A stretch of DNA of 39,465 nt from a bacterium (GCA_030607655.1 JAUWJN010000001.1:1-39465); one strand, 5' to 3'. Positions 1 through 39,465 are shown, counted from the first letter of the stretch. Program-made: numbers and translations. Notes: generated by a model not told the origin, from the sequence alone.

Positions 1-247
1 ACACATAGCTAAACGGGGCGGCGGTGTCAGTTCCCACCAACACTCCGTCTATCCGAAACTCTACCTTGTCAGCACCGGCTGATGCCGTCACAGTCACCGC
101 AATGTTTACAGCAGTGCCCTGATCTATGCTGGCCCCAGCGGCCGGTGCAGTGATAGTTACCCCTATGCTCGGGCCACCTTCCCCGTGGCACCCGGCCATA
201 ACCAACACCAGAGCAATTACTGGCACGACCCACAAATACTTATACAT
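1..247 (-). CDS. Lipoprotein N-terminus followed by the first half of a bacterial Ig-like domain; partial, runs off the window start
   Basis: ATG at 247-245 (complement) gives MYKYLWVVPVIALVLVMAGC/HGEGG (signal peptide plus lipobox). It continues ...ITAPAAGASIDQGTAVNIAVTVTASAGADKVEFRIDGVLVGTDTAAPFSYV and is open to base 1. It is absent from the ORF track because it is truncated. Confidence 0.6.
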   Translation of the reverse strand, partial: MYKYLWVVPVIALVLVMAGCHGEGGPSIGVTITAPAAGASIDQGTAVNIAVTVTASAGADKVEFRIDGVLVGTDTAAPFSYV

Positions 248-347
248 AACTACTCCCTCCTTATTTTTGCTTGCTAGTGACGTAGACATTATAGCCATTC
301 TTCGCCTTCCTGTCAATCTTTCCTCCTCACCGACTTCACAACTTCCC

Positions 348-1035: not shown

Positions 1036-2448
1036 ATGAGCTATGATAACATAAAGCTCCCTCGGCTGCAAGAGGAGGATGCCTCCGAGCAGATTACCTT
1101 AGAGCCCCTGCGCATTGGGGGCGACGAGATGAACCTGGCTGAATTCCCCTTTACCCTGCTGGCTGACCGACAGCCCTCAGGCGTGGACACCGTTGAGTTC
1201 TCCGACGTAATCAAGGGCAAAGATGGTGAAGTAATAGAGCGCACTTGGATTGTGACGGGGGCCGAAGAATTCGGCCTACCTGTGGCCAGTGACGAACAGG
1301 TGTACGTCGCCCTAATGGAACTGACCCGCGAGCAGGGCTTTAATAGCCGTGTCATCTATCTAACTCGCTACGAATTGATAAAACGGCTAGGCTGGCCGGA
1401 TAAGGGTGGTAGCTACGCACGCCTGAAGGGCTGTTTGGATAGACTGTTGGGGGTTACTATTACCGCCAATCAAGCCTTCTGGGACAAAACTAAACGCCGC
1501 TATCTGGACGTTGGCTTTCACATAATTGATGATTACGCTTTATACCGGGAACCCGCCGGTCGCAAGCCGCGCTGCGCTCCTATCCGTCAGCCCCTGAGCT
1601 ATATAGCCTGGAATCAGGTAGTCTTCAAGTCGTTCCAGGCAGGTAATATAAAACAATTGGATACCGGCTTTTACTTCGGCCTGCGTAGCGCTGTCTCCCG
1701 CCGATTATTCCGCTATCTGGACAAGAAGCGGCTGGACGGCAAGCGTGCTTTTAGAATAGGGCTGCGGAAGTTAGGCTTTGAGAAGCTGGGCATGAGCCGT
1801 AACTATTATCCTAGCCACATCAAGCAGGAACTCGCCCGCGCCCACCAGGAACTCATTGACAACGCTTTCCTGGCGGGCGTTCAGTATCACCGCCCTGGTC
1901 GTGATGTGGATGAGCAAGTGCTTTACTGGTTCCCCACCGGTAAGTATCAATTCTCTGCCGACTCCGGCCAGCGAGCCCGAGTCACCGAGCTGCTCCAGCA
2001 GCTATCTGAGGTGGGAATCACCCGGTCGGTTGCCGAACAACTATTAGCCCAGCATGGTGAGCAAGTGCAGGCCCAGCTACAGTATCTCCCCTATCGCAAC
2101 CCCCATGATCCTGCTGCGATGTTAGTCGAATCCATACGGAATGACTGGGCTCCTCCAGCTAGCCATCTAAAAGCTCAGGCCGAGGCCGATAAAGCGCGTC
2201 AGGAGGCTGAAGCCGAGCGTCAGCGCCAGCAGGAAAGGCGCCGGCAGCAAGGCAAACGGCAAGCTCGGAAAGAGGCCTGTCACCGCGCCTTAGAGCGCCT
2301 CTCCCCCACCGAGCGCCAGCAGATAGAAGCTACTGCCCGCCGCCAGATCCAGGAGGATAATCCTGCCCTTGCCGCCCACCCCGACACCACTGCCTACCAA
2401 GTCCTCTTTGAGGAGTACATCGCTGAACTACTGTTGCCATCAGACTAG
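1036..2448 (+). CDS. repA: Plasmid replication initiator, replication initiator protein A (RPA/RepA) family
   Basis: 470-aa ORF. The segments MNLAEFPFTLL, LPVASDEQVYVALMELTREQGF and RYELIKRLGW resemble RPA-family winged-helix initiators. The C-terminus is a charged coiled region (KAQAEADKARQEAEAERQRQQERRRQQGKRQARKE). It sits next to parA. The family call is from motif memory only. Confidence 0.65.
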   Translation: MSYDNIKLPRLQEEDASEQITLEPLRIGGDEMNLAEFPFTLLADRQPSGVDTVEFSDVIKGKDGEVIERTWIVTGAEEFGLPVASDEQVYVALMELTREQGFNSRVIYLTRYELIKRLGWPDKGGSYARLKGCLDRLLGVTITANQAFWDKTKRRYLDVGFHIIDDYALYREPAGRKPRCAPIRQPLSYIAWNQVVFKSFQAGNIKQLDTGFYFGLRSAVSRRLFRYLDKKRLDGKRAFRIGLRKLGFEKLGMSRNYYPSHIKQELARAHQELIDNAFLAGVQYHRPGRDVDEQVLYWFPTGKYQFSADSGQRARVTELLQQLSEVGITRSVAEQLLAQHGEQVQAQLQYLPYRNPHDPAAMLVESIRNDWAPPASHLKAQAEADKARQEAEAERQRQQERRRQQGKRQARKEACHRALERLSPTERQQIEATARRQIQEDNPALAAHPDTTAYQVLFEEYIAELLLPSD

Positions 2449-2543: not shown

Positions 2544-2909
2544 TCAGGTTCCAGCTCTCTCTTCCAGCAGAGTCGCGATCTGCCCCGTATCCCCCATCAT
2601 CTGCTCTAGTATTACCTCTACCACTTGTGAGCGACTTACTTTCAAGTCCTGATCCAGTAGTAACTGCACCCTGGTCAGCTCTAGCCGCTTTAATAAGTCT
2701 GGCGGCAAATAAAAGGTCACCTTCTCCGTGAAACCGGCCTCAATGGTGCGGGGCGGCCTGGCTTCCGTTGGCACCGGTGTCGGCGGCGCCTCTCTATTAC
2801 TTTTGCCGTTTTGCGGTTTTACCGCTTTGCGTTTAGGACGCTTCGCCTTTTCATTGGGACCACCCCCAAAAAAGTCTGCTGCCATGGGCAATTTAGGCTT
2901 CCCGGCCAC
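2544..2909 (-). CDS. Small ribbon-helix-helix centromere-binding partner of ParA (ParG-like)
   Basis: 121 aa, GTG start at 2909 with GGAGG 9 nt upstream. It overlaps the parA stop by 17 nt. A Lys/Pro-rich disordered N-terminal tail is followed by KVTFYLPPDLLKRLELTRVQLLL...VSRSQVVEVILEQ, a strand-helix-helix pattern. Confidence 0.6.
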   Translation of the reverse strand: MAGKPKLPMAADFFGGGPNEKAKRPKRKAVKPQNGKSNREAPPTPVPTEARPPRTIEAGFTEKVTFYLPPDLLKRLELTRVQLLLDQDLKVSRSQVVEVILEQMMGDTGQIATLLEERAGT

Positions 2910-3669
2910 GTTCGATGACCTCCTTCGCTACCTTACGATATACTTCAGCGGCTTCGCTAGTTGGCGCATACTTGGTGATAGGTTGGCCACTAGCCGGTGA
3001 TTCTTCGAACTTGATAGTGCGGGGTATCACAGTCTTAAACACCAGCTCCCCGAAGCCCTCCCGTACCATCTCGATCACCTGCTGGTGATGTCTCGTGCGC
3101 CGGTCATGCATCGTTAGCAGAATTCCACATATCCTTAAATCTGGTCTTACTCCCTGCACCTGCTTAATATTGCCCGTGATCTGTTGCAGTCCGTGCAGCG
3201 CCAAGTAAGAACACTGCTGGGGTACAATCACCTCGTCTGCCGCGGCCAGCGCCGAAACCGACAGCAAGTGCAACCCCGGGCCTGTATCTATCAAAATGAA
3301 ATCGTAATCGTCTCCCAGCGGACTGACCGCCCGTGCCACAACTTGCTCTCGCTCGCTTGAATCCATATCCGCCAACACCCACTCCGCCGCAGCCAGGTTA
3401 CTATCGGCCGGCGCTACCTCCACCCCTACACCCTCCACGCTCACTATGACTTCCTCCATCCCCATACCTTCCTTGAGCAACCCCTCATACACAGTCCCTA
3501 CCAACCCCTCCTTTACAACACCCAGGTGCGCACTGAGATCGCCGCGTGGGTCAAGATCTATAAGCAGCACCCTTTTCCGCATCTCCACCAGGCCGGCTCC
3601 CAGGTTCACCACCGTTGTCGTCTTCCCCACTCCCCCTTTTTGATTTGCCACTACAATAGTGCGTCCCAT
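2893..3669 (-). CDS. parA: ParA/Soj-type partition ATPase
   Basis: Deviant Walker A in MGRTIVVANQKGGVGKTTTVVNLG, followed by LLIDLDPRGD and DFILIDTGPG. About 258 aa, the size of a type Ib ParA. The ATG at 3669 is preceded by GGGGAG; the track ORF begins at an upstream GTG at 3687. Confidence 0.9.
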   Translation of the reverse strand: MGRTIVVANQKGGVGKTTTVVNLGAGLVEMRKRVLLIDLDPRGDLSAHLGVVKEGLVGTVYEGLLKEGMGMEEVIVSVEGVGVEVAPADSNLAAAEWVLADMDSSEREQVVARAVSPLGDDYDFILIDTGPGLHLLSVSALAAADEVIVPQQCSYLALHGLQQITGNIKQVQGVRPDLRICGILLTMHDRRTRHHQQVIEMVREGFGELVFKTVIPRTIKFEESPASGQPITKYAPTSEAAEVYRKVAKEVIERGREA

Positions 3670-3716
3670 TGTATCTCCCCTCATCACTCTCGTTGCCGTT
3701 TGCGTTTCCGCTGATG

Positions 3717-7059: not shown

Positions 7060-7779
7060 ATGCTACGGACTAGTAATCATAGCCGAGCCGCATTTACTCT
7101 AATTGAGTTGCTTGTAGTTATCGCCATTATCGCTATCCTCGCGGCCATACTTTTCCCTGTGTTTGCGCGGGCTAAGTCTAAGGCCAACCAGGCCACCTGT
7201 CTATCCAACCTTAAACAAATTGGCCTCGCCTTTCATATGTACGCTGGCGACTGGGACGGGCTTTTCCCGCCCCAGAAGGATGGCAATGACGATCTCGCCT
7301 ACATAAACTGGACCTACGGCTGGAATACTATAGATATTGCCCTTTACCCTGGCTTTAAGTACACCATGACGTATACGGTAGAAGCGCTAGACCCCTACAT
7401 GAGAAACTACGACATATGGTTCTGCCGTGATGATCCGTGGGCGGGAGACCGTACTGCTGGTCTTAGCACCACAGAGCTTGCTCAGGCCGGAGAGATTAGC
7501 TACAGTTTTGCTACGCAGTGGGAAACCTGGGGTGGGCTGGAGGATCCGATGTGTCCTGACTCTAGTGGCGAGTTCATCGACTTAGTGACCGGCTCCCCCT
7601 CAAAACGGCTGCTGATGGTAGACAACGGCTTGCCCCAATACCCTAGTTCGAATTCTACCGACTACGACTTCCCGCACTTTAGTGGCACCAATTCCCTCTT
7701 TTTGGATGGCCACGCGGACTTTATTCCCTGGCACCTGTATACTTTTGTCCATCCGCCGCTTGCGCCGTATACTCCTTAG
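7060..7779 (+). CDS. Prepilin-type N-terminal cleavage/methylation protein of the H-X9-DG (DUF1559-like) class
   Basis: [29 protein letters not shown] (type IV pilin-like leader plus helix). Near the C-terminus, [13 protein letters not shown] is an exact H-x9-DG motif. Confidence 0.9.
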
Positions 7780-7806
7780 CGCCGCTTGAGTGTAATTCTA
7801 ACCCAA

Positions 7807-7833
7807 CAGCCCCATCAACGGTGGGGCTGTTTG
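7807..7833 (+). terminator. Rho-independent terminator
   Basis: CAGCCCCA-tcaacgg-TGGGGCTG followed by a T-rich tail (tttgcctgttt). Confidence 0.6.
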
Positions 7834-8070
7834 CCTGTTTGTCCCTATTGTCCAGAGAGCTGCTGTTGCTCCGCCGGGCGGCCTCTTTGCGCTCACACTA
7901 TGGACAATCCCTAATCTCGCTTCTCTGGGCCTATCATTCCGGCCCCTCTCCCTGGGCCCGGCACCTATTTAGCGTCTTCTTTCCTAGCGTATTTAATCCC
8001 TCTCCAATATTATAGCGGGGCGGCCCTTGACCTCAAGATCGCCTCGGCACTGCCTCTGGCTGGCCAGTAA

Positions 8071-8166
8071 TACCGACCTTTAACTTGACTAATTGCCGAC
8101 CCCTGAATTAAAAAATGCCGACCTCCAGCTTTAGCTCTTTACATACTATAACGACCAGCGACCCAA
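8071..8166 (+). repeat. Phased direct repeats (T)GCCGACC(T), iteron- or regulator-array-like, upstream of an AT-rich block (8229-8272)
   Basis: CCGACC occurs at 8073-8078, 8096-8101 and 8118-8123 (spacing 23 and 22 nt). Degenerate CGACC copies occur at about 8152 and 8160. The repeats sit in a 670-bp non-coding gap. Confidence 0.3.
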
Positions 8167-8450
8167 CTAATATAGGCCCCCGGCACAAGCCGGCGGCCAG
8201 TTTGGCTCACGGCTATTGGTCTCCTCTCTATGATAATATTGTATACTATATGTTAATAGTACAACAACATACTTCACGCGTCGCAGGCCCCTATCTAATT
8301 ATCGGCTCATTGCCCGTCTATAAGTACTTGCACCCCACTATTGTTATTAGCTATCTTCCCCCTATATAAAGGGCAAACTATCTCCTATCACGAATTACTA
8401 ACTTGCCCACTTGGAGTTATTGCAGCGACACAACAAAGAGAGGTTTAGTA

Positions 8451-16864: not shown

Positions 16865-18031
16865 GTGATTGTTGCAGTGATTGCGCCACACGGCGGCAAG
16901 CTGACGAACCGAGTGTTAGAGGGAGAAGCCCTTCAGGAAGCTCTTAAGGAAGCCAGAGGCCTACCCCGGGTCGAAGTTAACTCTGAACTGGCTACTGAGG
17001 TAAGGAATATTGCTCGTGGCGTCTTCAGCCCACTGGAGGGGGTTACACCCTCGGAGGCCTTCCAGAGCATCATAGAAAGTGATGCGTTGGCCTCGGGGGT
17101 GGCCTGGACTATTCCCATTATTTTCGACGTGCCCAGCCGAGATGCTATCCCCGAGGGCCAGCGAACTTGCTTGGTGGAGAATGGCCAGGCTAGGCCGCTA
17201 GCCATCTTGGATGTGGAAGATATTTACCTTTGGGATAAACAGAAGGCGGCAGCAGCGGTCTTCGGGACTACTGATAGCAACCACCCGGGGGTGAAGGGGT
17301 TCTACGAGCGTGGCGACTATTTGGTAGGGGGGAAGGTGGAACTGCTCGACAATAACCGCGGCCCCTATGAGAAGCTTAATCTCTCCCCGGTGGAAACGCG
17401 TGCGGTGTTCGAGGAGCGGGGCTGGCGGACAGTGTGTGCCTTCCAGACCCGCAACGTGCCCCACCGGGGCCACGAGGAGCTGCAGAAGACGGTCCTGGGG
17501 CTGGTAGACGGCTTGTTCATTCAGCCGGTTATCGGCAGGAAGAAGCCGGGAGACTTCCGCGACGATGTTATTCTGGCCACTTATGAAGCCCTCATTGACA
17601 ATTACTATGCCAAGGACAGGGTGTTTCTTAACATTTTGCCTTTTGTGATGCGTTATGCCGGGCCGAAAGAAGCCATTATGCACGCGATTATGCGGAAGAA
17701 CTACGGCTGCACCCATATAATAATTGGCCGTGACCACGCCGGAGTCGGCGATTACTATGGCGAAGAGGACGCCATTGAGATATTTGATGAGCCGCGCTTT
17801 GCCGACTTGGGGATCCGCCCCATTACTATCCGTGGGGATTTCTGGTACTGCCAGAAGTGCGGACGGGTAGCCAGCAACCGGACTTGTCCTCACGGCAAGG
17901 AGTGGCAGATTTCCTTCAGCGGGACAAAAATTCGCCAGCTTATCACCGAAGGAGAGGCACCCCCGCCCGAGATTATGCGCCCTGAGGTCTTCGCAGTTAT
18001 TCAGCAGTTCGACAATCCTTTTGTGACTTAG
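16865..18031 (+). CDS. sat: Sulfate adenylyltransferase (ATP sulfurylase)
   Basis: QTRNVPHRGHEEL, GRDHAGVGDYYG and PHGGKL at the N-terminus. There is a C-x2-C-x8-C-x-H cluster (CQKCGRVASNRTCPH). The start is ambiguous between 16865 and 16877. Confidence 0.9.
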   Translation: MIVAVIAPHGGKLTNRVLEGEALQEALKEARGLPRVEVNSELATEVRNIARGVFSPLEGVTPSEAFQSIIESDALASGVAWTIPIIFDVPSRDAIPEGQRTCLVENGQARPLAILDVEDIYLWDKQKAAAAVFGTTDSNHPGVKGFYERGDYLVGGKVELLDNNRGPYEKLNLSPVETRAVFEERGWRTVCAFQTRNVPHRGHEELQKTVLGLVDGLFIQPVIGRKKPGDFRDDVILATYEALIDNYYAKDRVFLNILPFVMRYAGPKEAIMHAIMRKNYGCTHIIIGRDHAGVGDYYGEEDAIEIFDEPRFADLGIRPITIRGDFWYCQKCGRVASNRTCPHGKEWQISFSGTKIRQLITEGEAPPPEIMRPEVFAVIQQFDNPFVT

Positions 18032-18123
18032 CCCACTATTAGACACATTGGCAAGCAGGTGTGTTTAGCTAATCCCGCCTTGAATACCGGAGTACTATGT
18101 GACAGTGGAAGGACACTTGTGAC

Positions 18124-19512
18124 ATGGCAGCGATAAATCGAGTAGTTATCATCGGCTGGGATTGCGCGCCCGCCGATTTGCTGTCGGACGAGTGGCTGGC
18201 GGAGATGCCCAATCTGCGCGGGATGGTTAACCAGGGACTGAGCGGGCCCCTGCGCAGCAGCGACCCGCCGATTACCGTGCCCGCGTGGACGTGTATGGTC
18301 AGCTCTAAGAATCCGGGCCAATTGGGGTTTTACGGATTCCGCAACCGCAAGATTGGTGAATACGACGGGATGTGGATTGCCACCAGCGCGGCGGTACGGG
18401 CTAGACGACTGTGGGATATATTGGGCGCCCGGGGCAAGCGGTGCGCTGTGTTTAATGTGCCTCAGACCTATCCGGTCAAGCCGGTTAATGGTGTGCTGAT
18501 CTCCAGCTTCCTGACTCCTGGCACCGACAGCCAGTATACCCATCCACCAGAGTTGAAGACAGATATTGACCGCGTGGCTGACGGCTACATAATTGATTGT
18601 GAGAACTTTCGCACTGACGATAAAGGACGGTTGCTCGACCAGATTTACCAGATTACTGACAAGCGTTTCGCTGTAGCGAAGTACCTGTGGGAGCAGGAGG
18701 CCTGGGATTTCTTTATGATGGTGTATATGGGCCCCGACCGCATCCAACACGGCTTCTGGAAGTATCACGATCCGCAGCATCGCAAGTTTCAGCCCGGCAA
18801 TCCATTCGAGAGGGCCATCCGGGACTACTACAAACATCTGGACCAACAACTGGGTGAACTGGTTAGTATGGCCGGTGAGGATGCCGCCATTATGGTAGTG
18901 TCTGACCACGGCGCCAAGCGAATGGAGGGCTCCTTTAACATCAATGATTGGCTGATTAAGCAAGGGCTCCTGACCCTCAACGCGCCTATAGACGGCCCGA
19001 CCAAATTCTCCGTTGATTTGGTGGACTGGTCAAAGACTGTCGCGTGGGCCTGGGGCGGATATTACTCGCGCGTCTTTATGAATGTGCAGGGGCGGGAGCC
19101 TCAGGGGACAGTGACACCTGGTGAATATGAGAGCGTACGAGATGATCTCATTAACCGACTGACTCAGGTTACAGATGATCAAGGACGCGTTATGAACACG
19201 CGGGCCCTGCGGCCCCAGGATTTATTCAGCGGGCCCTATGTCCAGGAGGCTCCTGATTTGTTCGTGTATTTTGATGACTTGTACTGGCGGGCCGGGGAGA
19301 GCCTGGGAAATGCCAGTCTGCACAGCTCTGATACGGAAATCGGCCCTGATGATGCTGTCCACGATTATGATGGCATATTCGTATTGAGCCTCCCTGGCGA
19401 GCAGAGAGGGGAAAGGCTGGCGCGGCTGCAACTTATGGATGTGGCGCCGACTGTGATGAAGCTCCTGGGCACTCAAATCCCAGTTGATTTTGAGGGAACC
19501 AGCGTTGTATAG
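18124..19512 (+). CDS. Alkaline-phosphatase-superfamily enzyme (type I phosphodiesterase / nucleotide pyrophosphatase-like)
   Basis: VVIIGWDCAPADLL and PITVPAWTCMVSSKNPGQLGFYGF (metal-ligand and nucleophile region), plus MVVSDHGAKRM (DHG metal site). Confidence 0.7.
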   Translation: MAAINRVVIIGWDCAPADLLSDEWLAEMPNLRGMVNQGLSGPLRSSDPPITVPAWTCMVSSKNPGQLGFYGFRNRKIGEYDGMWIATSAAVRARRLWDILGARGKRCAVFNVPQTYPVKPVNGVLISSFLTPGTDSQYTHPPELKTDIDRVADGYIIDCENFRTDDKGRLLDQIYQITDKRFAVAKYLWEQEAWDFFMMVYMGPDRIQHGFWKYHDPQHRKFQPGNPFERAIRDYYKHLDQQLGELVSMAGEDAAIMVVSDHGAKRMEGSFNINDWLIKQGLLTLNAPIDGPTKFSVDLVDWSKTVAWAWGGYYSRVFMNVQGREPQGTVTPGEYESVRDDLINRLTQVTDDQGRVMNTRALRPQDLFSGPYVQEAPDLFVYFDDLYWRAGESLGNASLHSSDTEIGPDDAVHDYDGIFVLSLPGEQRGERLARLQLMDVAPTVMKLLGTQIPVDFEGTSVV

Positions 19513-19538
19513 ATAGTATAAGCTGATAGGAGAGAACC

Positions 19539-20072
19539 ATGAACGACCACGGCACTGTAATATGGTTTACTGGCGTGCCCGCTTCGGGCAAATCAACTAT
19601 TGCTAGCCTTGTGGAGAACAAGCTACGTGCTGGGGGGCTGCCAGTCGAAAACCTGGATGCCGACGAAATCCGCGCTAATCTGAGCCCCAATTTGGGATAT
19701 ACGGCCCAAGCCCGGGATGAGAACACCAAGCGCCTGGCGTGGATGGGCCAGATGCTCTCGAAGTATGGAGTGAACGTAATTGTTGCTGCCGTCTCGCCCC
19801 TGCGCTCACATCGCGACCGGGCGCGGGCATGGTGCGCTAGATTTGTGGAGGTATTTGTGGACTGCCCCACCGAAGTCTGCCAGGAGCGCGACCCTAAGGG
19901 CCTGTATGCCCGGGCGGCGAGCGGCGAGGTCAATGACATCGCCGGCATGCACATGCCCTATGAAGTGCCGGCGAGCCCTGAAGTACACTCCCGCACAGAT
20001 CAGGTTGACGCAGAGGCCTGCGCCCAGATGGTAATCGACAAGCTTGTAGAGCTTACCTACATTGGTTCTTAA
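19539..20072 (+). CDS. cysC: Adenylyl-sulfate (APS) kinase
   Basis: P-loop IWFTGVPASGKSTIA, LDADEIR, VIVAAVSPLRSHRDRAR and GLYARAASGEV. AGGAGA Shine-Dalgarno upstream. Confidence 0.9.
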   Translation: MNDHGTVIWFTGVPASGKSTIASLVENKLRAGGLPVENLDADEIRANLSPNLGYTAQARDENTKRLAWMGQMLSKYGVNVIVAAVSPLRSHRDRARAWCARFVEVFVDCPTEVCQERDPKGLYARAASGEVNDIAGMHMPYEVPASPEVHSRTDQVDAEACAQMVIDKLVELTYIGS

Positions 20073-20143
20073 TAGTCGGCTCAGATATATCTGCCCGGCG
20101 TGATGACGCCGTACTGCCCAAAAGTACGGTAGGAGTAAGTGCA

Positions 20144-21055
20144 ATGAACTTCGTGCAGGCCCTGCCGGTTAGCTTTCGGCGGCGCTTCAAGCGCGCGCTG
20201 GTCGTCGTATGGATTACGTCTGCTATCCTCCTCGTGGGCGGTGCGGTCGCTCTCGCGGTACTGGGGAAAGGCGTGGATTTTGCGATAGTACACCATCGCG
20301 GCTGGCTGGTCTTCGGGCTGGCTGTCGTGCTCTCCTTTGTAGCCGAGTATGTGGACAGTTCGATAGGTATGGGTTATGGGACGACTCTCACGCCCATGCT
20401 TCTGCTGCTGGGCTTCGCTCCCTTGCAGATCGTCCCCGCGGTGCTCCTGCAGGAACTGATCTCGGGCTCTCTGGCGGCCTATAGTCACCACTCCCTTGGC
20501 AATGTTGACCTCCGGCCGGGCAAAACCGCCCTGAAGCTCGGCCTCCTGCTCGGCGTATGCGGGTTGGTTGGAGGGAGCATCGCGGCCACAGTAGCCTTGG
20601 AATTGCCCAAGGCGACAATAAAAGTCATGACTGGGATCATAGTTTTGGCTATGGGGGTGCTTGTGGCCTTGGCCGGCCGTATGCGCCTGCGCTTCTCCTG
20701 GCCGCGAGCCGGGGTTCTTGGTCTCATTGCAGCAGCAAACAAGGGTTTCATGGGGGGTGGTTATGGGCCCCTTATCACGTCGGGCCAAGTTGTCAGTGGC
20801 GTGGCAACCCGCGAAGCAATTGGCATCACGTCCCTCGCAGAAGCGTTTACTTGTGTGGGAGGTCTAGCGGGCTACCTGGTGGGTGGCACCCACATCTTTT
20901 GGCCTCTAGCCGGAGGAATGATAGTCGGCGGTGCTATAGCGGCAGTCCTTGGGGCAGCGACGGTCAGAGCCATATCGCCGGCCAAACTCACTATCGCTGT
21001 GTCTGCTGGCTGCGTGTTCCTTGGCGTATTGACCCTAATGCGAGCGCTGATGTAG
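20144..21055 (+). CDS. TauE/SafE (DUF81) family anion (sulfite/sulfonate-type) transporter
   Basis: 303 aa with about 8 TM helices and an internal duplication carrying Gly-rich motifs (IGMGYGTTL and FMGGGYGPLI). It lies in the operon with sat and cysC. Confidence 0.75.
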   Translation: MNFVQALPVSFRRRFKRALVVVWITSAILLVGGAVALAVLGKGVDFAIVHHRGWLVFGLAVVLSFVAEYVDSSIGMGYGTTLTPMLLLLGFAPLQIVPAVLLQELISGSLAAYSHHSLGNVDLRPGKTALKLGLLLGVCGLVGGSIAATVALELPKATIKVMTGIIVLAMGVLVALAGRMRLRFSWPRAGVLGLIAAANKGFMGGGYGPLITSGQVVSGVATREAIGITSLAEAFTCVGGLAGYLVGGTHIFWPLAGGMIVGGAIAAVLGAATVRAISPAKLTIAVSAGCVFLGVLTLMRALM

Positions 21056-32134: not shown

Positions 32135-32995
32135 ATGAGAATCTATCTTGTCAGTGATCTGGAAGGTGTGGCGGGGGTATATCAGTGGGAGAATGGCACG
32201 GAAGATACTAGTCTGGAGAACCATGAACGGCGCTGTCGGCAGCGGCGTTGGCTCGCTGAAGAGGTCAATGCTGCCGCTCGTGGGTTCTTTGACGGAGGAG
32301 CGAGTGAGGTCTGGGTCAACGACGGCCACGGTGCCGGCTATACCATTGACCTCGACCTTGTTGACCCGCGAGTGCGGATAATCCACGGCAAAGAGCGCTC
32401 CGCGTATTGCATAGGGTTAGACGGAAATTGCGCCGCCATCGGCAGTATTGGTACCCACGCGAAAGCCGAAACATACGGCGCAAATTTGTACCACACCGGT
32501 TCACGACCGGTCCGTGGTCATTGGGTCAATAGTATCAGCGTCGGCGAAACCGGCAAGCAAGCATTCCTAGCTGGCCATTACGGTGTGCCGTACGTATTCT
32601 GTGCCGGAGATGCCTGGGCGTGCAAAGAAATGGAGGAGCTGGCGCCCGGGTGCATAACAGTGCCAGTTAAGGTGGGCTTAAGCCGGCTATCGGCAAAGAC
32701 CCTCGTACCAGCGAAAGCCCGCGAGTTGATATACGAGGGTGCGCGGGAAGCTATTAATAGAATCGAACAGGTAGAGTCGCTACGGCTGGAGACACCCATA
32801 GTTTTTCGCGAGGAATTCTACGAGCCAGCATTTGACTCGGAAAACCCACCTGCGGTTGGGAGGATAATAGATAGTCATACGCGAGAGGTCCAAGCCGAGG
32901 ATATGCCCGCGCTGTTAGCTAAAATGTACGGCCATGATCCTGATTGGCAGCCGTTCTGGGAGCAATACCCTAAGTTTAGTAAGCATCAGATTTAA
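32135..32995 (+). CDS. Peptidase M55 (DppA-type D-aminopeptidase) family, paralogue 1
   Basis: MRIYLVSDLEGVAGV, VNDGHG, GTHAKA, GETG, and AGHYGVPYVFCAGDAWACKEMEEL (compare DppA AGYYDVPVLMVAGDDRAAKEAEEL). Confidence 0.85.
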   Translation: MRIYLVSDLEGVAGVYQWENGTEDTSLENHERRCRQRRWLAEEVNAAARGFFDGGASEVWVNDGHGAGYTIDLDLVDPRVRIIHGKERSAYCIGLDGNCAAIGSIGTHAKAETYGANLYHTGSRPVRGHWVNSISVGETGKQAFLAGHYGVPYVFCAGDAWACKEMEELAPGCITVPVKVGLSRLSAKTLVPAKARELIYEGAREAINRIEQVESLRLETPIVFREEFYEPAFDSENPPAVGRIIDSHTREVQAEDMPALLAKMYGHDPDWQPFWEQYPKFSKHQI

Positions 32996-33006
32996 GGAGC
33001 ATCACC

Positions 33007-33852
33007 ATGAAATTCTACCTGATGACAGATTTGGAGGGCGTAGCTGGTGTATATCAGTGGGAGAACCGTGAAGACGAGAGCCTGGAGAACCACGAGCGCC
33101 GCTGCCGACAGCGGCGGTGGCTGGCCGAGGAGGTTAATGCGGCGGTTGAAGGTTTCTGCGCAGGCGGGGCCACCGAGGTGATAGTCAACGATGGGCACGG
33201 CGCCGGATATACTATTGACTTGGACTATATGGACCCCCGCGCTGAGGTCATAAATGGGGTGGAGCGGCCCTTCTGGCTGCCCTATCTGGACGAGAGCTGC
33301 GACGCCACCGGCATAGTGGGTGCTCACGCCAAAGCAGGTACAATAAATGGGTGCCTATACCATACAATGAATACTGGGGTTCGCGACTGGCAGTTTAATG
33401 GAATCTCCTTGGGCGAAATGGGCCTACAAGCAGCTATAGCCGGCCATTATGGGGTCCCGTTCGTACTCTGCACCGGAGATGCGTGGGCGTGCCAGGAGAT
33501 GGAGGAGTTAATCCCAGGGATAATAACCGCGCCGGTCAAATATGGCACCTCGCGCTTCTCGGCACTGACATGCGCGCCGGAGGAAGCACGACGGCGAACA
33601 GGGGAAGCGGCCGAGCAGGCAATGACAGTGGTTCATCAAATAGAGCCGTTTAAACTCGATAGTCCGGTGCACTTCCGTGATGAGCGCGTCGAGCCGATGT
33701 TCGATGAGGAAAAACCCGCGGAGGGCTTTAAGGTCATCAATCCCCACGTCCGCGAGGCAGAAGCGGACGATATCATCCAACTGATGGCCCTGATCTACGG
33801 CTACGATCCGGATTGGAAGCCACTGGAGTTTATACCCGCCTGGAAAAGGTAA
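33007..33852 (+). CDS. Peptidase M55 (DppA-type) family, paralogue 2
   Basis: MKFYLMTDLEGVAGVYQWEN and ENHERRCRQRRWLAEEVNAA (identical to paralogue 1), plus VNDGHG and AGHYGVPFVLCTGDAWACQEMEEL. Confidence 0.85.
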   Translation: MKFYLMTDLEGVAGVYQWENREDESLENHERRCRQRRWLAEEVNAAVEGFCAGGATEVIVNDGHGAGYTIDLDYMDPRAEVINGVERPFWLPYLDESCDATGIVGAHAKAGTINGCLYHTMNTGVRDWQFNGISLGEMGLQAAIAGHYGVPFVLCTGDAWACQEMEELIPGIITAPVKYGTSRFSALTCAPEEARRRTGEAAEQAMTVVHQIEPFKLDSPVHFRDERVEPMFDEEKPAEGFKVINPHVREAEADDIIQLMALIYGYDPDWKPLEFIPAWKR

Positions 33853-33880: not shown

Positions 33881-35740
33881 TTATTGTATAAACTGAACTA
33901 CCGCCACGCCGGGACCGGCTAACTCAATAGTCTGTTGCGTGGCTAATGGCAAATCCAGGAATTGAATCTGCTGAGCGGAGGGGTCTACTTTACGGGCCCT
34001 GGCTAAAGCAAGCTTGCCTGCTTGTTTTACTTTTATGGCAAAAACTCGCTGTCCCTCTCCCCCATACGCTATTACTACATTGTTGGCGGTAGCCGTGCGG
34101 ATCGCTGCCACTATCGTTTCATCATCAGGATATAACCAGTGGCATAACTTTGAGCCCCGGGGCATATAAGTGCGCACCAGCCACGCCGCCTGATAAACGG
34201 CAGAGGCTTGCCCTTCTTCATCGACAAAGCCCACCTTGTCCCCTGACAGAGGAGTATATAGCAGTTTGTCAATATAGGGAGCCGCGGCCAGAGCAGCCAT
34301 CGCTAGCCAACTGCCAGTAAAGTATTCCGAAGTCGGCTGCCCAGCACTTGGTGTCGCTGAGTTTAGGCCTGTTTGGGTTGCAAAGACTTCTGGAGGCGGC
34401 CGCCGCTGCCATCTTGCCTGGGCGCCAGCGACCTCAAATGATAGCTGCCCTGGCAAGTCAGGTGATTGCCCTGTGCGGGCTGCCGATAGCAATTGCGCGG
34501 CGTCTGCTACCGGAGTATGCGCCCCCCAAAAGTGATAGGAGAGAAAATCTAGACGGTTGGCGCCTCCTACGAAACCGCTCAGATGTTCCTCCCAAGGCGA
34601 AGCCAGCCCCGGTCCTCCAATCCATGCATCTGGGTCTGCCTGGATTATTTGGTCGGCCAGCAAGTTATAGGCGTTGATAACATCATAAGTAGTTACCAAA
34701 TCAGGCTGGAGCAGAGGCTGACTAAGTAATTCATAGTAGCGCCCCCACGGCTCCCCCGCACGCAGCGTTACTAATCGTCTAACCGTTGCCCTGAATACCT
34801 GCCGCAGACCCTGGCCTTTTTGTGCCTCATCGCCAGGGCGCGTGGGCGGGGAGTGTAAGCAAATAAGGGCCTTGGCCCCCTGCCGCTGGATAAAGTTCAC
34901 GTGCTGGTTAAGCCGAATAATGTCATATTGCTCCTGGTCCCGTCGCAGATAATCATCTAATACAAATCTTACGACGCAGGGCGCCAGCCCGCGAATAACG
35001 CTGCCAACTGTATCTTGTGCCTCCAGGCTAGCCTCGATTGCGGCTCCAGCTGCCCCAAAGTTGCAGCCTATCTGCGTGCGCACCGCCCCTGACCACCTGC
35101 GAAAATCAAGCTCTAACACTTCTTGTTGAGAGACTATTGGGCCGGCCTTAGACTCGGCCCTAAGCTCGTCAACATAGAATCGGCACGGCTCCCACGAGCC
35201 CGCCTTCACAAACTGTAAGAGAGTCAGATGTAGCAAGTCATCTCGGGTTAGGGTCTGGCCGTCTTTATCCTTAAACCCTAAGAAACGCAGCCCCAGCTTC
35301 CGCCATTGCGTGCCGCGTAGGGACACCGGCTGGCTATAAGCTACGTCTGGGTTGTGCGGGCGGTTATAAAAAGCACGCAACACCACGCTCACTTCGCTAT
35401 CTGAACCATCGCCGCGCAGCCACATTGACAGTTCTGTACAGTTATTTTGCGCCCAAGTTTGCCCATTTATGTCAATGGTCACACTAGCCCAGGTACTTTT
35501 GCCTTCCAAAAACTCAATCATTCCTGCCTGCTGGCCCCCGCCAGGCGCACTATCACTAGTGGTATAAATGCCACATAGCTTGGCCGGCTTGGCCCCCGCT
35601 ACTCCCCCATCATTTGTCATCCACGCGCCAGCGCCTGTCTCAAAGTCTTCAATGAGTACCGCCTGAGAGGCCGGGAGCATACCGACAGCAGCCGCGACAA
35701 GTATTAGAGTTGCTAATCCGGATCGGAGCATCTTCCCCAT
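33881..35740 (-). CDS. Secreted protein: N-terminal CBM/jelly-roll-like module plus clan GH-A (GH39/PslG-like) TIM-barrel-like domain
   Basis: Signal peptide MGKMLRSGLATLILVAAAVGMLPASQA. The N-terminal module shows EDFETGAGAW, WLRGDGSDSEV and FYVDELRAE. The C-terminal part shows YYELLSQP, DFLSYHFWG and EVFATQTG. The resemblance is weak and by eye only. Confidence 0.35.
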   Translation of the reverse strand: MGKMLRSGLATLILVAAAVGMLPASQAVLIEDFETGAGAWMTNDGGVAGAKPAKLCGIYTTSDSAPGGGQQAGMIEFLEGKSTWASVTIDINGQTWAQNNCTELSMWLRGDGSDSEVSVVLRAFYNRPHNPDVAYSQPVSLRGTQWRKLGLRFLGFKDKDGQTLTRDDLLHLTLLQFVKAGSWEPCRFYVDELRAESKAGPIVSQQEVLELDFRRWSGAVRTQIGCNFGAAGAAIEASLEAQDTVGSVIRGLAPCVVRFVLDDYLRRDQEQYDIIRLNQHVNFIQRQGAKALICLHSPPTRPGDEAQKGQGLRQVFRATVRRLVTLRAGEPWGRYYELLSQPLLQPDLVTTYDVINAYNLLADQIIQADPDAWIGGPGLASPWEEHLSGFVGGANRLDFLSYHFWGAHTPVADAAQLLSAARTGQSPDLPGQLSFEVAGAQARWQRRPPPEVFATQTGLNSATPSAGQPTSEYFTGSWLAMAALAAAPYIDKLLYTPLSGDKVGFVDEEGQASAVYQAAWLVRTYMPRGSKLCHWLYPDDETIVAAIRTATANNVVIAYGGEGQRVFAIKVKQAGKLALARARKVDPSAQQIQFLDLPLATQQTIELAGPGVAVVQFIQ

Positions 35741-35774: not shown

Positions 35775-36941
35775 TTAGTCTGTTGCTTTCACAGCCTCGG
35801 CTACGTTCACTACATACATTTGCCGGTGGCCCTCGTGAGTAGAGTCAAAACAGACCTGCGTGCCATCGCGATTCCAACGCGCATGAAGGTCGCAACGCAT
35901 CTCTCCCTTGAATTCCTCAGGGGCGAAGAACCGCCCGATATCTACCCGGAGCCCACCTTCAGGACGATACAGGATAAGCGTCTGATAGTGTTCTTCGGAT
36001 GGATAGGTATCAGTCAAAATCCACTTGTCATCCGGCGAATAGGTGCAATGCCCATTCTCAGTCAGCACGTCCTCCCCAACAATCTCTACCTCGCCGGTTT
36101 GGTCCGTGTATAAATAGTAGTGAGGGCCTGTGGGCTCCGGCCACGCCCAGGCTATTACGTGCCGTGAGTTGCGCCAATCAAAATGCGACACCCCTTCGTC
36201 AATGAGCAAATACCGGTCCGAACCGTCGAGCCTAGCGGTGATCATCTGCTGCCCCCAACCCTCAGCTCTCTGCCAGCGATGTAGAAAAATAAAGCGGGAA
36301 CCATCATCGTTAAGTAGTAGATGGTTAAACCAATGGGCACCATCACCCGGTCGGGGCTCGGAGAACCGGGCAGCAATTTCGCCCAGCGAAACGATGAACT
36401 TGTTCTCCCCAGTGGTCAGGTCCATCCAATAGATACCGTCATCATCAGGAGCAGGATCGTCCACCCACGCATCAGGGACACCGTTGTACCCATAGCCCGG
36501 CCGCGTTCGGTGTATGCGAGAGAAATTCGGGCAGACTCCCTGTGTGCCATCACGGCTAACGGCGTATACTGCCCGAGGCAGGACAGTCGCCTTCCCACTG
36601 TGGACGTCTCGGATAACTGCCACATAGTGATCCTCAACGCGATCATTGTAAATAATCAGGCGGTCCGGAGCCGATCCTAACCATTGCAGCATCGCCCCCT
36701 GCTGCCAGTTCCAAGCAGTTGTTTCGGCAAGCGGCTCAAACCTGTTATTCGCCTGTAAATCAATAAGGCCGACGGTGGCCTTGTCCTCGGGGCTAGGAGA
36801 CCGATCGGCAAACGACACCTCTAAGGCTAATAGGTACTGTCCCGTCGCATCCCATTGCATCTTGTCATAATACCCAAAAAAATGATGCAGTGGACCGGAA
36901 GTTACAGCTTGGACCGGAAGTGTATGCGTTACTCTGGGCAT
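35775..36941 (-). CDS. Cytoplasmic beta-propeller protein, oligogalacturonate-lyase (PL22)-like
   Basis: HFFGYYDKMQWDATGQYLL near the N-terminus, and CDLHARWNRDGTQVCFDSTHEGHRQMYVV at the C-terminus (compare Ogl H.HPSFTPDDKQILFTSD.EG...LY). No signal peptide. Confidence 0.4.
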   Translation of the reverse strand: MPRVTHTLPVQAVTSGPLHHFFGYYDKMQWDATGQYLLALEVSFADRSPSPEDKATVGLIDLQANNRFEPLAETTAWNWQQGAMLQWLGSAPDRLIIYNDRVEDHYVAVIRDVHSGKATVLPRAVYAVSRDGTQGVCPNFSRIHRTRPGYGYNGVPDAWVDDPAPDDDGIYWMDLTTGENKFIVSLGEIAARFSEPRPGDGAHWFNHLLLNDDGSRFIFLHRWQRAEGWGQQMITARLDGSDRYLLIDEGVSHFDWRNSRHVIAWAWPEPTGPHYYLYTDQTGEVEIVGEDVLTENGHCTYSPDDKWILTDTYPSEEHYQTLILYRPEGGLRVDIGRFFAPEEFKGEMRCDLHARWNRDGTQVCFDSTHEGHRQMYVVNVAEAVKATD

Positions 36942-37185: not shown

Positions 37186-38844
37186 ATGTCCTACCGCGTG
37201 ATATTGATTGCTCCAATGTTGTTGGGCCTCTTGATTATTGCAGGCTGTGGAGGCGATGGCGGCCCCGCCACCCTTTCTCAAGTAGCACCCTCGGCTGGCC
37301 GCCCCGGCTCCCTGACAATGTATCCTGCCCAGGAGCAGGGTGAACTGCTGGGCGATCTAGATGAGGACCTGCTGGCCAGCGTCGGTGATGCCATAAAGAT
37401 ATTGCTTATCGTGGTGCACGTAGATCCACCGAATGCACTCGCCGATGCTAACGAAAATGGCACCACTGATGTAGGAGATGCCATCAAGGTACTGCGCTGT
37501 GTGGTGAAGCTTGATGAGTGGCCCATAGGCCATTATGGTGGCGGCGGCTCAGCAGATATTAGCGATGGGTTGAATGCGCCCCAAGCCACTTCTCCAGCCT
37601 CTGAGGGGCCTGGAGATGACGCGGTGACCTTGCTCGAAAACTGGGAAGGTGACCCACCTGAGGATACTTCCGACCTTGATGACATGCTGACTGACTTCAC
37701 TGATTTGGTGAATAGTGACCCTAATTCGTCAGCCGGGCAGTTAGGACTATCTCTGGCCCTGGTGGCCGCGGGGGCGCAGAATGCCGCCGATGAACTAGGC
37801 TATGACATATTTGATGGGGTAGGTGTCCAGTCGGTGGCCTCCTTGGCGTTTTCGGATAAATACAGTGCGTCCCGAGCTATCAACAAAGCTGTGGACATTG
37901 CGCTGGTTAGGCCCTGGCAGAGGCCAAAGGCTGGCGTGTACCCCCAGGGGCAGATACCCGATACCTACTACACCACTGAGGAGATCCAGCAGGTTGTCCG
38001 CGACAATATCCTTCCGGTGTTAAATGATGCTATCGCCCGCCTGGATATTCTTTCCCAGGCTCCGGCCGGCACTGTGCTAATTACCTACGTAGACAATGGG
38101 GACACCTATAAGCTGTATCACGCCGATTTCGATCTCCTAGTAGCTGGCCTGCAACTGGTAAGGGCTTTTAGGCTGCAGCTAGTAGCTTATGACCTGGACG
38201 CCGGGAGTTACGACTGGGAAGTTGACCTCTGGGAACGCGATGCCAACGCCAACAACATATTGACCGTCGCTGAGTATGCCCCGCCCGATCCCTTCTTAAC
38301 TCTCCTCAGCGCTCAGGATATGAACAATGCGGGTGACGCCATTGAGGATGCGCTGCAGAGAACAATAGACGCTATAGATAACCGCGTCAGTAGTGATCCT
38401 GATGAAGTGATAAATATGTTGTTAGAGGACGAATCAGCCTCGGATATTCAAGACATCCGCGATATGGCACAGAATGCTCTGAATATATTCAGCGGGGCGG
38501 TGAATATGGATGTCCAGTACGCTCACTACAATTGGGTCAACGGCCAATGGTCGGGCGACGGCACTGAGACCATTCAAATCAATCTGTCCCGTATCTGGAG
38601 TAATTCCATTGCCGATGTCAAAGACCTGTTCCCAACGCTCCACATCACCACCCCAGGTGTCGACCACTACACGATGGCCTACAGTGACTGGCCCGACCCT
38701 ACTATGAACGGTGTCTTCCCCGATGCACAGGACATGAAGGATCTCTGGGACGCCGATTACGAGTATCTGGAGATTATTTATGATGATATTGAGATAGAAA
38801 TCAATGACAACTACCTACCCTCGAACCCTCCCCCATTCCTCTAA
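37186..38844 (+). CDS. Dockerin-domain lipoprotein with a large acidic domain of unknown function
   Basis: MSYRVILIAPMLLGLLIIAGC/GGDGG (lipobox). Dockerin repeats DLDEDLLASVGDAIKILLIVV and DANENGTTDVGDAIKVLRCVV. About 420 further residues are rich in D/E and match no motif I recognise. The protein ends INDNYLPSNPPPFL. Confidence 0.7.
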   Translation: MSYRVILIAPMLLGLLIIAGCGGDGGPATLSQVAPSAGRPGSLTMYPAQEQGELLGDLDEDLLASVGDAIKILLIVVHVDPPNALADANENGTTDVGDAIKVLRCVVKLDEWPIGHYGGGGSADISDGLNAPQATSPASEGPGDDAVTLLENWEGDPPEDTSDLDDMLTDFTDLVNSDPNSSAGQLGLSLALVAAGAQNAADELGYDIFDGVGVQSVASLAFSDKYSASRAINKAVDIALVRPWQRPKAGVYPQGQIPDTYYTTEEIQQVVRDNILPVLNDAIARLDILSQAPAGTVLITYVDNGDTYKLYHADFDLLVAGLQLVRAFRLQLVAYDLDAGSYDWEVDLWERDANANNILTVAEYAPPDPFLTLLSAQDMNNAGDAIEDALQRTIDAIDNRVSSDPDEVINMLLEDESASDIQDIRDMAQNALNIFSGAVNMDVQYAHYNWVNGQWSGDGTETIQINLSRIWSNSIADVKDLFPTLHITTPGVDHYTMAYSDWPDPTMNGVFPDAQDMKDLWDADYEYLEIIYDDIEIEINDNYLPSNPPPFL

Positions 38845-38873
38845 ATTGGTAGCTGGCTAAGCTCTACACACAG

Positions 38874-38912
38874 AAAAAAGGGGCCGGCCTGAGAAGGTCG
38901 GCCCCTTCGTTA
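38874..38912. terminator. Bidirectional rho-independent terminator between convergent genes
   Basis: AAAAAA-GGGGCCG-gcctgagaaggt-CGGCCCC-TTCGTT. The A-tract and the T-rich tail flank a GC stem. Confidence 0.7.
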
Positions 38913-38934
38913 GTTGCGCCGTTACGCGGTAGAC

Positions 38935-39465
38935 CTACTGGACGGTAACCGTCCCGTCTACTGCCACCGGCTGAGGAGTAATATCACTACCGGTATTGTC
39001 CTTAAACGCCAGCGGGGTAGGCGCTCCGCCAGTCTCGTCAATGTCTATATCGGTATCCCCAGTTGGCCCAAGGGAGCCGAAGTTGATGGTGAGGATCTCA
39101 TCCTTGGCGGCGTCGAAGTTCGTCGTACCGGCTACCGCTATCGTAATAACGCCCGGCGTAAGAGTAGTATCCCGCACCAGGAGCGGGCTAGCGGCCGCGG
39201 CTGATTCACCAAGCTGGACGCCAGCATCGCCACCCACTACCTGCAAGGCGACCTGATCATAGTTGATGGTCATCTGGAAGCCGGCCACGCCGGTAGTGTC
39301 GGTCATCTTTATCGAGACCGTGGTAGAACCACCGCTGGCTACGTTGGTATCCTCTACATAGATGGTAAAGTTATCTACCGTCACATCTATGGTATCCGAG
39401 CCAGTAACAGTAAGGGTATCCGTAGCTACTGCCGTGATGGCATGGGTGCCGTTAGAAAGCTGAGT
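38935..39465 (-). CDS. Second half of an Ig-like domain plus a C-terminal cohesin domain; partial, 5' end runs off the window end
   Basis: The frame is open from 39465 with no stop in the 27 codons upstream of the track ORF: TQLSNGTHAITAVATDTLTVTGSDTIDVTVDN. A cohesin-like module follows: FTIYVEDTNVASGGSTTVSIKMTDTTGVAGFQMTINYDQVALQVV...GVITIAVAG...EILTINFGSLGPTGDTDIDID...VAVDGTVTVQ. Confidence 0.65.
   Translation of the reverse strand, partial: TQLSNGTHAITAVATDTLTVTGSDTIDVTVDNFTIYVEDTNVASGGSTTVSIKMTDTTGVAGFQMTINYDQVALQVVGGDAGVQLGESAAAASPLLVRDTTLTPGVITIAVAGTTNFDAAKDEILTINFGSLGPTGDTDIDIDETGGAPTPLAFKDNTGSDITPQPVAVDGTVTVQ

Follow-up and report, generated by a model that had tools for sequence, protein, structure and literature searches.

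A candidate lipid-anchored, non-cellulosomal cohesin–dockerin docking set on a plasmid-like replicon of uncultured Armatimonadota

Introduction

Cohesin–dockerin (or dockerin-like) plug-and-socket pairs are also used beyond cellulose breakdown, as in the amylosome of Ruminococcus bromii and the toxin and glycosidase complexes of Clostridium perfringens. To our knowledge, cohesins and dockerins outside cellulosomes have been catalogued since 2009, yet hardly any has an assigned role. A cellulosome proper is defined, in PMC13487519, by a scaffoldin that has at least two cohesins, along with dockerin-fused glycoside hydrolases; the same article cites Peer et al. 2009 (FEMS Microbiol Lett 291:1) for cohesin-like and dockerin-like modules outside cellulosomes, which mostly sit on parent proteins without catalytic function. 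The pair of Archaeoglobus fulgidus is a known non-cellulosomal example (cited in PMC12484212). Here, we analyze a bacterial contig of 39,465 nt (GCA_030607655.1, JAUWJN010000001.1:1-39465; the whole stretch is called the window below) that encodes one cohesin lipoprotein, whose gene is split over the two contig ends, and two dockerin lipoproteins of 147 and 552 amino acids (aa). We estimate a probability of about 70% that these three predicted lipid-anchored proteins form a non-cellulosomal docking system at the cell envelope, with the cohesin as receptor for the dockerins.

Results

Cohesin and dockerin modules in three predicted lipoproteins

The open reading frame (ORF) at the right end of the window (Table 1) ends in a cohesin, as a first-pass annotation made from the same DNA had claimed. 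It scores 39.6 bits with Pfam PF00963 (gathering cut-off 24.1) over profile positions 3-139 of 139, and a profile built from 11 family cohesins matches more than 20 solved cohesins, including those of ScaB (3l8q, 2.4e-13), CipA, CipC, and SdbA. At the opposite contig end, the 247-1 ORF matches Pfam Big_7 (4e-14, profile positions 3-54 of 70) and its translation reads a VMAGC lipobox with Cys20; its 267-aa homologue P0018 satisfies a PROSITE PS51257-type rule at the same residue (P-numbers denote database proteins, and L-numbers denote contigs or loci of relatives). Intact homologues (L001, 451 aa; L002, 364 aa; L003, 368 aa; P0018) run from MYKYLW..AGCHGEG to ..VDGTVTIQ, as the two window fragments do between them. 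Because relatives carry the gene intact, both fragments are read as one gene, and on these alignments the 247-1 ORF is its N-terminus, as had been surmised. A word-indexed protein search with the cohesin fragment retrieved one homologue, and a DNA-pattern scan of metagenomes brought further ones.

Both contig ends thus lie inside one gene that is continuous in relatives, yet they show no terminal overlap, and their direct junction is out of frame, with at least 2+3n nt missing. The 5′ half of the immunoglobulin-like (Ig) region resembles the first Ig module of L001 and the 3′ half the second or third, so that one or two Ig modules may be missing, and the assembly probably broke because these modules are repeated. 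The same observations could be taken to mean that the contig ends derive from different genes or replicons and that the three genes are not contiguous. We regard such an artefact as very improbable: in other samples the gene is intact on continuous contigs, with the same gene order, and the repeated Ig modules offer the best explanation of the break. One cohesin was detected in the window, and the assembly gap falls within the Ig modules. Among cohesin lipoproteins the number of Ig spacers varies from 1 to 3, while one subfamily has minimal forms of 183-190 aa that consist of lipobox and cohesin alone, with only ~10-15 residues between lipid anchor and cohesin.

The cohesin start is preceded by a sigma-70 promoter-like site that matches the consensus perfectly (Table 1). 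Sites with at most one mismatch to this consensus number 3 in the window, against 0.08 expected by chance; the other two precede the PEP-CTERM gene (6113-6141(+), gene start 6228) and parA (3723-3751(-)). A perfect TTGACA-17-TATAAT site also precedes a paralogue of the 552-aa protein gene in a relative (L006:3078-3106).

The 552-aa product is identical to NCBI protein P0001 and has 16 homologues; the small product is identical to P0019 and is matched by the family dockerin hidden Markov model (HMM) at 1e-29. The small gene may start at 791 or at an upstream ATG at 833 (161 aa), and its n-region depends on this choice. Lipobox cysteines fall at residue 21 of the 552-aa protein, where Cys is invariant in alignment A1, and at residue 26 of the 147-aa protein by the PS51257-type rule, which is satisfied by 122 of 176 retrieved relatives. 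Together with Cys20 of the 247-1 ORF, this agrees with the lipoboxes that had been proposed for all three. The rule asks for a hydrophobic stretch and then [LVI..][ASTG..][GAS]-C at about residues 15-35.

Dockerin identity is carried by profile and fold comparisons. A 14-sequence dockerin profile matches the solved dockerins 2ccl_B, 2mte_A, and 1daq_A at ~8e-4 (8e-4 to 5e-3 with 4uyp_B included), i.e., the dockerins of Clostridium thermocellum Xyn10B and CelS and of Acetivibrio cellulolyticus ScaB, and Pfam Dockerin_1 matches 7 of the 14 relatives (best E 7.2e-7). The AlphaFold2 (AF2) model of the 552-aa protein has a pLDDT of 73.5 and a pTM of 0.70. In Foldseek, its dockerin part matches the ScaB dockerin (4uyp_B/4uyq_B) with probability 1.00 and a target TM score of 0.68-0.70 (root-mean-square deviation 2.3-2.9 over 63-68 columns), and a BFVD entry named 'Dockerin type 1', also with probability 1.00. 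Both window proteins therefore carry divergent dockerins, called at the level of family and fold, which upholds the earlier identification.

As that annotation had also stated, each dockerin has two repeats in which a 12-residue Ca loop is followed by a helix; the repeats are tandem segments of ~22 residues, with four loops in the window. Ligand positions considered were 1, 3, 5, 9, and 12. The D/N pattern claimed for positions 1, 3, 5, and 12 is present in three of the four loops; the exception is loop 2 of the small protein, where position 5 is S. Across 67 further lipo-dockerin proteins, D1, D12, and R18 are invariant in both repeats, the pattern expected of a Ca-loaded, near-symmetric dockerin. 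These conserved loop ligands suggest that folding and binding would be Ca-dependent. In the 552-aa protein, repeat 2 alone looks fully competent, as judged from its residues. Neither dockerin protein of the window carries a glycoside hydrolase domain in Pfam scans.

Both plasmid-borne dockerin proteins end in a proline run with one hydrophobic residue (348-401(-) and 38824-38841(+)). Small-dockerin homologues all terminate in PPPPPF or PPPPPPI, and tail variants PPPPPF, PPPPPPI, PPPPPDI, and SPPFP occur in P0019-P0029, P0002-P0010, P0110, P0115, P0128, and P0130. The proline tail may be a C-terminal recognition or sorting motif.

Table 1 Features of the docking set, its replicon genes, and related adaptor proteins. 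Positions refer to the window unless a locus is named.
Feature	Position	Strand	Basis or content
5′ part of cohesin lipoprotein gene	1..247	-	82 aa, start MYKYLW; lipoprotein signal MYKYLWVVPVIALVLVMAGC (Cys20) and N-terminal part of Big_7
Sigma-70 promoter-like site TTGACA-17-TATAAT	288..316	-	12/12 consensus match only; ~40 nt before cohesin ATG
Small lipoprotein gene, 147 aa	348..791	-	Lipobox, linker, two-repeat dockerin (~402-590), tail WPLPWPPGGGPPPPPF
RepA-type replication initiator	1036..2448	+	Pfam RPA 2.2e-11; adjoins docking set
ParA-type partition ATPase	2893..3687	-	Pfam AAA_31/CbiA/ParA; kept in syntenic loci
552-aa lipoprotein gene	37186..38844	+	Lipobox Cys21, disordered linker, two-repeat dockerin, acidic 'D420' domain, C-terminal PPPFL
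Dockerin module of 552-aa protein, aa 53-118	37342..37539	+	Repeat 1 DLDEDLLASVGDAIKILL, repeat 2 DANENGTTDVGDAIKVLR; motif scan
Acidic domain 'D420', aa 121-552, mixed alpha/beta	37546..38841	+	pI 4.05, net charge ~-58
EF-hand-type Ca-binding loop within acidic domain, aa 352-364	38239..38277	+	DANANNILTVAEY; PROSITE PS00018
3′ part of cohesin lipoprotein gene	38935..39465	-	176 aa, end ...DGTVTVQ then stop (38935-38937)
Cohesin module	38938-39375	-	Pfam Cohesin
Ig-like module, C-terminal half	39376-39465	-	Alignment with intact homologues
Cohesin-dockerin-cohesin adaptor	L002:6817-8637	-	
Cohesin-dockerin-cohesin adaptor	L003:8107-9966	-	
Cohesin-dockerin-cohesin adaptor	L018:810-2702	+	
Cohesin-dockerin-cohesin adaptor	L020:2846-4777	+	

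Conserved gene order and parallel change

Relatives were gathered from two independent starts: the 552-aa protein led to syntenic contigs of 27-35 kb in other samples and metagenome-assembled genomes (MAGs), and a metagenome scan with the cohesin led to 17 loci. All loci were annotated with home-made HMMs. Contigs that are continuous across the locus (L001/L017, L002, L003, L004, L015/L016, and L027) show the order D420-dockerin gene (+), one or more cohesin genes (-), small dockerin gene (-), and RepA (+), with ParA further on. By this order, the three window genes are contiguous, on a replicon that is probably circular or circularly permuted, and the neighbourhood proposed earlier for a circular element is seen directly in relatives.

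In 13 distinct contigs, the next gene upstream of the cohesin gene, in the same orientation, is that for the small dockerin-polyproline protein (gaps of ~40-150 nt). The 13 include the subfamily with minimal cohesin proteins of 183-190 aa, and this adjacency holds across subfamilies down to ~40% identity. A convergent D420-dockerin gene downstream of the cohesin gene was found in 8 contigs, and RepA adjoins the set in 8. With 13 against 8 contigs, the conserved core is the pair of small dockerin and cohesin, and the trio is a frequent extension of it; the three-gene set described at first does recur in fixed order, contrary to the lack of co-occurrence that the first-pass annotation had named as a refuting outcome, but the 552-aa protein belongs to a subset of loci. 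The modules also appear to change together. In the L004/L027 subfamily, both dockerins have changed alike (repeat 1 xxDAxxxM, repeat 2 GDALxVLR), as expected if both dock on the same cohesin, and the cohesin of that subfamily is divergent as well (PAGYQMTVEYD vs VAGFQMTINYD).

Alternatively, the modules may be real without being partners, with the dockerin repeats serving as generic EF-hand-type Ca stabilizers or linkers and the cohesin-like beta-sandwich binding polysaccharide or the polyproline tail. Dockerin-like modules occur without cohesins in many genomes (Peer et al. 2009, as cited in PMC13487519), the dockerin profile used here also matches EF-hand proteins such as calcineurin-B-like proteins, Dockerin_1 stays below its cut-off on the window proteins, and lipo-dockerin proteins are far more numerous than the cohesins found. 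An excess of dockerins over cohesins is, however, normal in cellulosomes too, and a lack of partnership would sit poorly with the tight adjacency of small dockerin and cohesin across subfamilies, with the parallel change of two dockerins and a cohesin, and with single proteins that combine both modules as adaptor scaffoldins do. We therefore hold this alternative to be quite unlikely.

Adaptor-like proteins and a wider family of tagged lipoproteins

L002, L003, L018, and L020 encode lipoproteins of ~610-640 aa whose domains run cohesin - dockerin - Big_5 - Ig - cohesin (Table 1). In their domain order, these two-cohesin proteins resemble adaptor scaffoldins and would permit branching or self-assembly; no adaptor-type cohesin-dockerin-cohesin protein is encoded in the window. 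In another subfamily (L022:1871-3112(+), L023:4721-5182(+)), a cohesin lipoprotein of 490 aa with 3-4 Ig modules precedes a dockerin lipoprotein, whose C-terminal domain is cohesin-like by eye (..DLSGFSVGMTYNTTRLE..), without a cohesin call in the HMM scan.

An exhaustive profile search returned 1,188 cluster representatives, which fall into two classes. Class 1 has the acidic domain alone, mainly as a lipoprotein without dockerin, and class 2 has a lipobox-linker-dockerin module at the N-terminus of proteins of 120-1,200 aa with other C-terminal cargo. This cargo includes NHL, SGL, and PD40 propellers, CarboxypepD_reg, FGE-sulfatase-like domains, S8 and M28 peptidases, and rhodanese; glycoside hydrolases are absent from the 25 commonest cargo families of 67 lipo-dockerin relatives. 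Given the enzymatic cargo of class 2, the earlier description of the dockerins as enzyme-less holds for the two plasmid-borne window partners and not for the tag family as a whole. Two class 2 genes that were looked up lie amid housekeeping genes, near dnaA and acc genes.

A broader and more tentative interpretation, which we consider doubtful on balance, is that the lipobox-linker-dockerin module is a lineage-wide address tag on chromosomal lipoproteins while cohesin receptors reside mainly on the RepA/ParA replicon, so that a plasmid would control which of the chromosomal lipoproteins come to be assembled at the envelope. The module occurs on hundreds of protein clusters, with genes that would, on this interpretation, be scattered over the chromosome. 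If true, a diderm phylum would have a 'lipo-cellulosome-like' display system, lipid-anchored and two-dimensional, whose dedicated plasmid-borne cargo would be an acidic, Ca-binding new fold; the replicon would be small and vertically conserved, and would also encode export of sulfated exopolysaccharide.

The acidic domain of the 552-aa protein

The first-pass annotation had described a highly acidic domain of roughly 420 aa and of no recognizable fold, and this description stands for what is here taken as a domain of 430 aa. The acidic domain gave no Pfam or NCBIfam family, phmmer found no match for the 552-aa protein in PDB, and Foldseek against PDB and BFVD found no fold match (TM at most 0.13). 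Its Foldseek matches (e.g., IDO1, IFIT, and TPR proteins) were rejected as noise at that TM. PS00018 matches to the EF-hand-type loop are found in 14 of 14 family members, with D352, N354, and E363 invariant, and the D420 family comprises more than 70 clusters at E<1e-30, mainly lipoproteins without dockerin.

Chromosomal members stand in a recurrent arrangement: in every one of the chromosomal loci (L005-L013 and L034-L038), the gene for an acidic-domain lipoprotein is followed, after 60-160 nt, by a same-strand gene for a signal-peptide protein of 475-570 aa (e.g., L034:8001-9590 then 9656-11086; L037:5893-7548 then 7608-9068). This partner ends in ..YYF, ..YCF, or ..RQF, an outer-membrane-barrel-like terminus, and has no Pfam family. 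The barrel-like partner is absent from the window and from plasmid-type loci.

The replicon and its neighbouring genes

As judged from its gene content and from related contigs, the window represents, completely or nearly so, a RepA/ParA plasmid-like replicon of uncultured, 'Ca. Zipacnadia'-type Armatimonadota. The taxonomic assignment rests on MAG labels, i.e., related contigs in MAGs tagged 'Candidatus Zipacnadia' or Armatimonadota, and the plasmid-like character on RepA and ParA, its own replication initiator and partition genes, as for a plasmid or secondary replicon. RepA shares 33-38% identity with proteins that are annotated as 'replication initiator protein A' on plasmids of Isosphaeraceae and other planctomycetes. 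A tblastn search of PLSDB plasmids with the cohesin and the 552-aa protein gave no match. The Pfam scan of the window revealed no relaxase or type IV secretion system genes, and a role of the set in conjugation or entry exclusion was rejected on that basis.

Replicons of 27-39 kb with a common backbone (RepA, ParA, a ParB-like gene, a PEPCK-like gene, OPX, an HD phosphohydrolase, and the cohesin-dockerin set) were seen in several samples and MAGs, with 50-80% protein identity between the window and L001, L002, L003, and L015. This has the look of a secondary replicon that has persisted over a long time, not of a recent mobile plasmid. In sample ERZ3603971, the plasmid-type contig NODE_71 (L015) has a coverage of 33.7, and the chromosomal-type NODE_30 (L040), which carries a lipo-dockerin gene, one of 18.6; if L015 and L040 share one organism, this would correspond to ~2 copies of the replicon per chromosome.

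The remaining replicon genes serve envelope and polysaccharide functions according to Pfam and NCBIfam scans. They include exopolysaccharide-type genes (two Wza-like OPX exporters, a Wzz/GNVR co-polymerase, a Wzy-like polymerase, and a GT4 glycosyltransferase), as well as ATP sulfurylase, APS kinase, a TauE-family protein, a PEP-CTERM protein, and a pilin-like N-methyl/DUF1559 protein. The sulfate genes lie beside the exopolysaccharide genes at 16865-21055(+) and encode ATP sulfurylase, a phosphodiesterase/sulfatase-like protein, APS kinase, and the TauE-family protein (compare L015:17984-20804), and relatives of the replicon encode sulfotransferases. Taken together, sulfate activation in the window and sulfotransferases in relatives suggest export of a sulfated polysaccharide.

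Two tandem paralogous M55 D-aminopeptidase genes (32135-33852(+)) are kept in L002. Upstream of the 552-aa gene lie genes for 619 aa (33881-35740) and 388 aa (35775-36941), neither with a family; the latter is kept in L002 and shows a faint TolB-propeller likeness.

Discussion

Proposed mechanism

In the mechanism that we propose, the three proteins would be exported and lipid-anchored on the envelope. Each dockerin would take up two Ca ions as it folds and would then occupy a cohesin, in a one-to-one ratio. The cohesin lipoprotein would thereby be a receptor, itself lipid-anchored, by which dockerin-tagged lipoproteins are held together in defined complexes. The small dockerin-polyproline protein might be the default or a competing occupant, or an adaptor through its proline tail, with the acidic-domain protein and chromosomally encoded lipo-dockerin proteins as alternative cargo. 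The context of OPX, Wzz, Wzy, GT4, sulfate, and PEP-CTERM genes suggests that these complexes would be located at the outer envelope, the site of export of an exopolysaccharide that is probably sulfated. On the sequence level, docking is supported by the module calls, the lipoboxes, synteny, conservation of Ca ligands, parallel change, and modular reuse of the tag.

Several points weigh against docking. The first-pass annotation had named failure of the Pfam profiles as an outcome that would count against it, and while the cohesin profile passes, Dockerin_1 (PF00404) stays below cut-off on the small protein (13.6 vs 22.9 bits) and does not match the 552-aa protein at all. Repeat 1 of the 552-aa dockerin is degenerate, with G6 replaced by L and R18 by L at positions kept in relatives, and the single-sequence AF2 model of P0018 is poor in its cohesin part (pLDDT below 40), where a nine-stranded beta-sandwich (jelly-roll) is expected. 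The parallel change of the dockerins could be explained by shared ancestry instead of co-adaptation. Lipid anchors on both partners are unusual for cohesin-dockerin systems. A single-cohesin receptor alone cannot assemble several partners.

The lipid anchors on both partners, which make simple recruitment redundant, could instead point to pairing in trans, i.e., cohesin and dockerin lipoproteins on different membranes or cells. The Ca-dependent plug and socket would then bridge the inner and outer membranes, or glue cells together with exopolysaccharide in aggregation or flocculation, and proteins would not be clustered within a single membrane. Variable Ig spacers (1-3) that raise the cohesin off its anchor, the exopolysaccharide export genes on the replicon, and a PEP-CTERM protein that weakly resembles PepA, a flocculation protein (38.6 bits against a cut-off of 80), would fit such a role. 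The spacer of ~10-15 residues in minimal cohesins is, however, too short for the periplasm and awkward for cell–cell reach, and the partners are co-encoded and probably co-expressed in one cell. We thus consider pairing in trans unlikely, and docking of dockerin lipoproteins on the cohesin receptor in the same envelope remains our preferred interpretation.

Significance of the locus

The locus offers a clean test case: socket and plug form a minimal pair in synteny that has a strong promoter-like site of its own, kept from ~40% to 80% identity on a small replicon, together with a second cargo of unmatched fold and a family of tagged lipoproteins. If binding is confirmed, two partners that both carry lipid anchors would be shown to dock as cohesin and dockerin in a diderm phylum, the set would provide orthogonal, naturally co-evolved pairs for synthetic surface display, and it would hint at how an uncultured marine-sediment lineage organizes its envelope around exopolysaccharide export.

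Comparison with known systems

The modules of the window are homologous to those of cellulosomal type I/II pairs (C. thermocellum, A. cellulolyticus ScaB/ScaC, and C. cellulolyticum CipC), and among solved structures they come closest to ScaB cohesins (3l8q), to the dockerins of Xyn10B and CelS, and, by fold, to the ScaB dockerin. Like cellulosomal dockerins, those of the window have two near-symmetric 22-residue repeats with Ca loops, and relatives encode adaptor-like proteins with both cohesin and dockerin. The set was first described as unrelated to cellulosomes, which is apt for its non-cellulosomal use but not for the ancestry of its modules. In contrast to cellulosomes, the set has one detected cohesin and no glycoside hydrolases or carbohydrate-binding modules; it is anchored by a lipobox, where cellulosomes use S-layer homology (SLH) modules or sortase; and its dockerins are N-terminal, right after the lipid anchor, whereas cellulosomal dockerins are C-terminal on secreted enzymes. 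It also differs in the unusual helix motif VGDAIK(I/V)LR, an Armatimonadota host, and plasmid-borne genes. Since the window encodes neither a scaffoldin with two or more cohesins (some relatives have a two-cohesin protein) nor a dockerin-fused glycoside hydrolase, the set is not a cellulosome.

The R. bromii and C. perfringens systems recruit secreted enzymes in Firmicutes, whereas here the cargo is an acidic domain or none and all partners are predicted to be lipid-anchored. For the acidic domain only, the SusD-SusC system offers a functional analogy, in that a lipoprotein gene is paired with a barrel-like gene in the chromosomal loci. Neither in sequence nor in fold do these proteins resemble SusD or SusC, no Pfam family matches the partner, and the plasmid copies are without it.

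In a literature search, we found no paper on cohesins in Armatimonadota or Zipacnadia; they go unmentioned in the Zipacnadia description, and Fervidibacter has been reported without them. Non-cellulosomal cohesin-dockerin systems as a kind are already known, and the set shares with the non-cellulosomal modules cited in PMC13487519 a host that does not build cellulosomes, mostly non-catalytic parent proteins, and low copy number. Unlike these, both partners here are predicted lipoproteins, the pair or trio is syntenic beside a plasmid repA, and the lipobox-dockerin tag has expanded over many cargo types within one lineage. What would be new is therefore the combination of lipid anchors on both partners, an N-terminal dockerin directly after its anchor, synteny at a plasmid repA, and an apparent expansion of the tag in an uncultured class of Armatimonadota.

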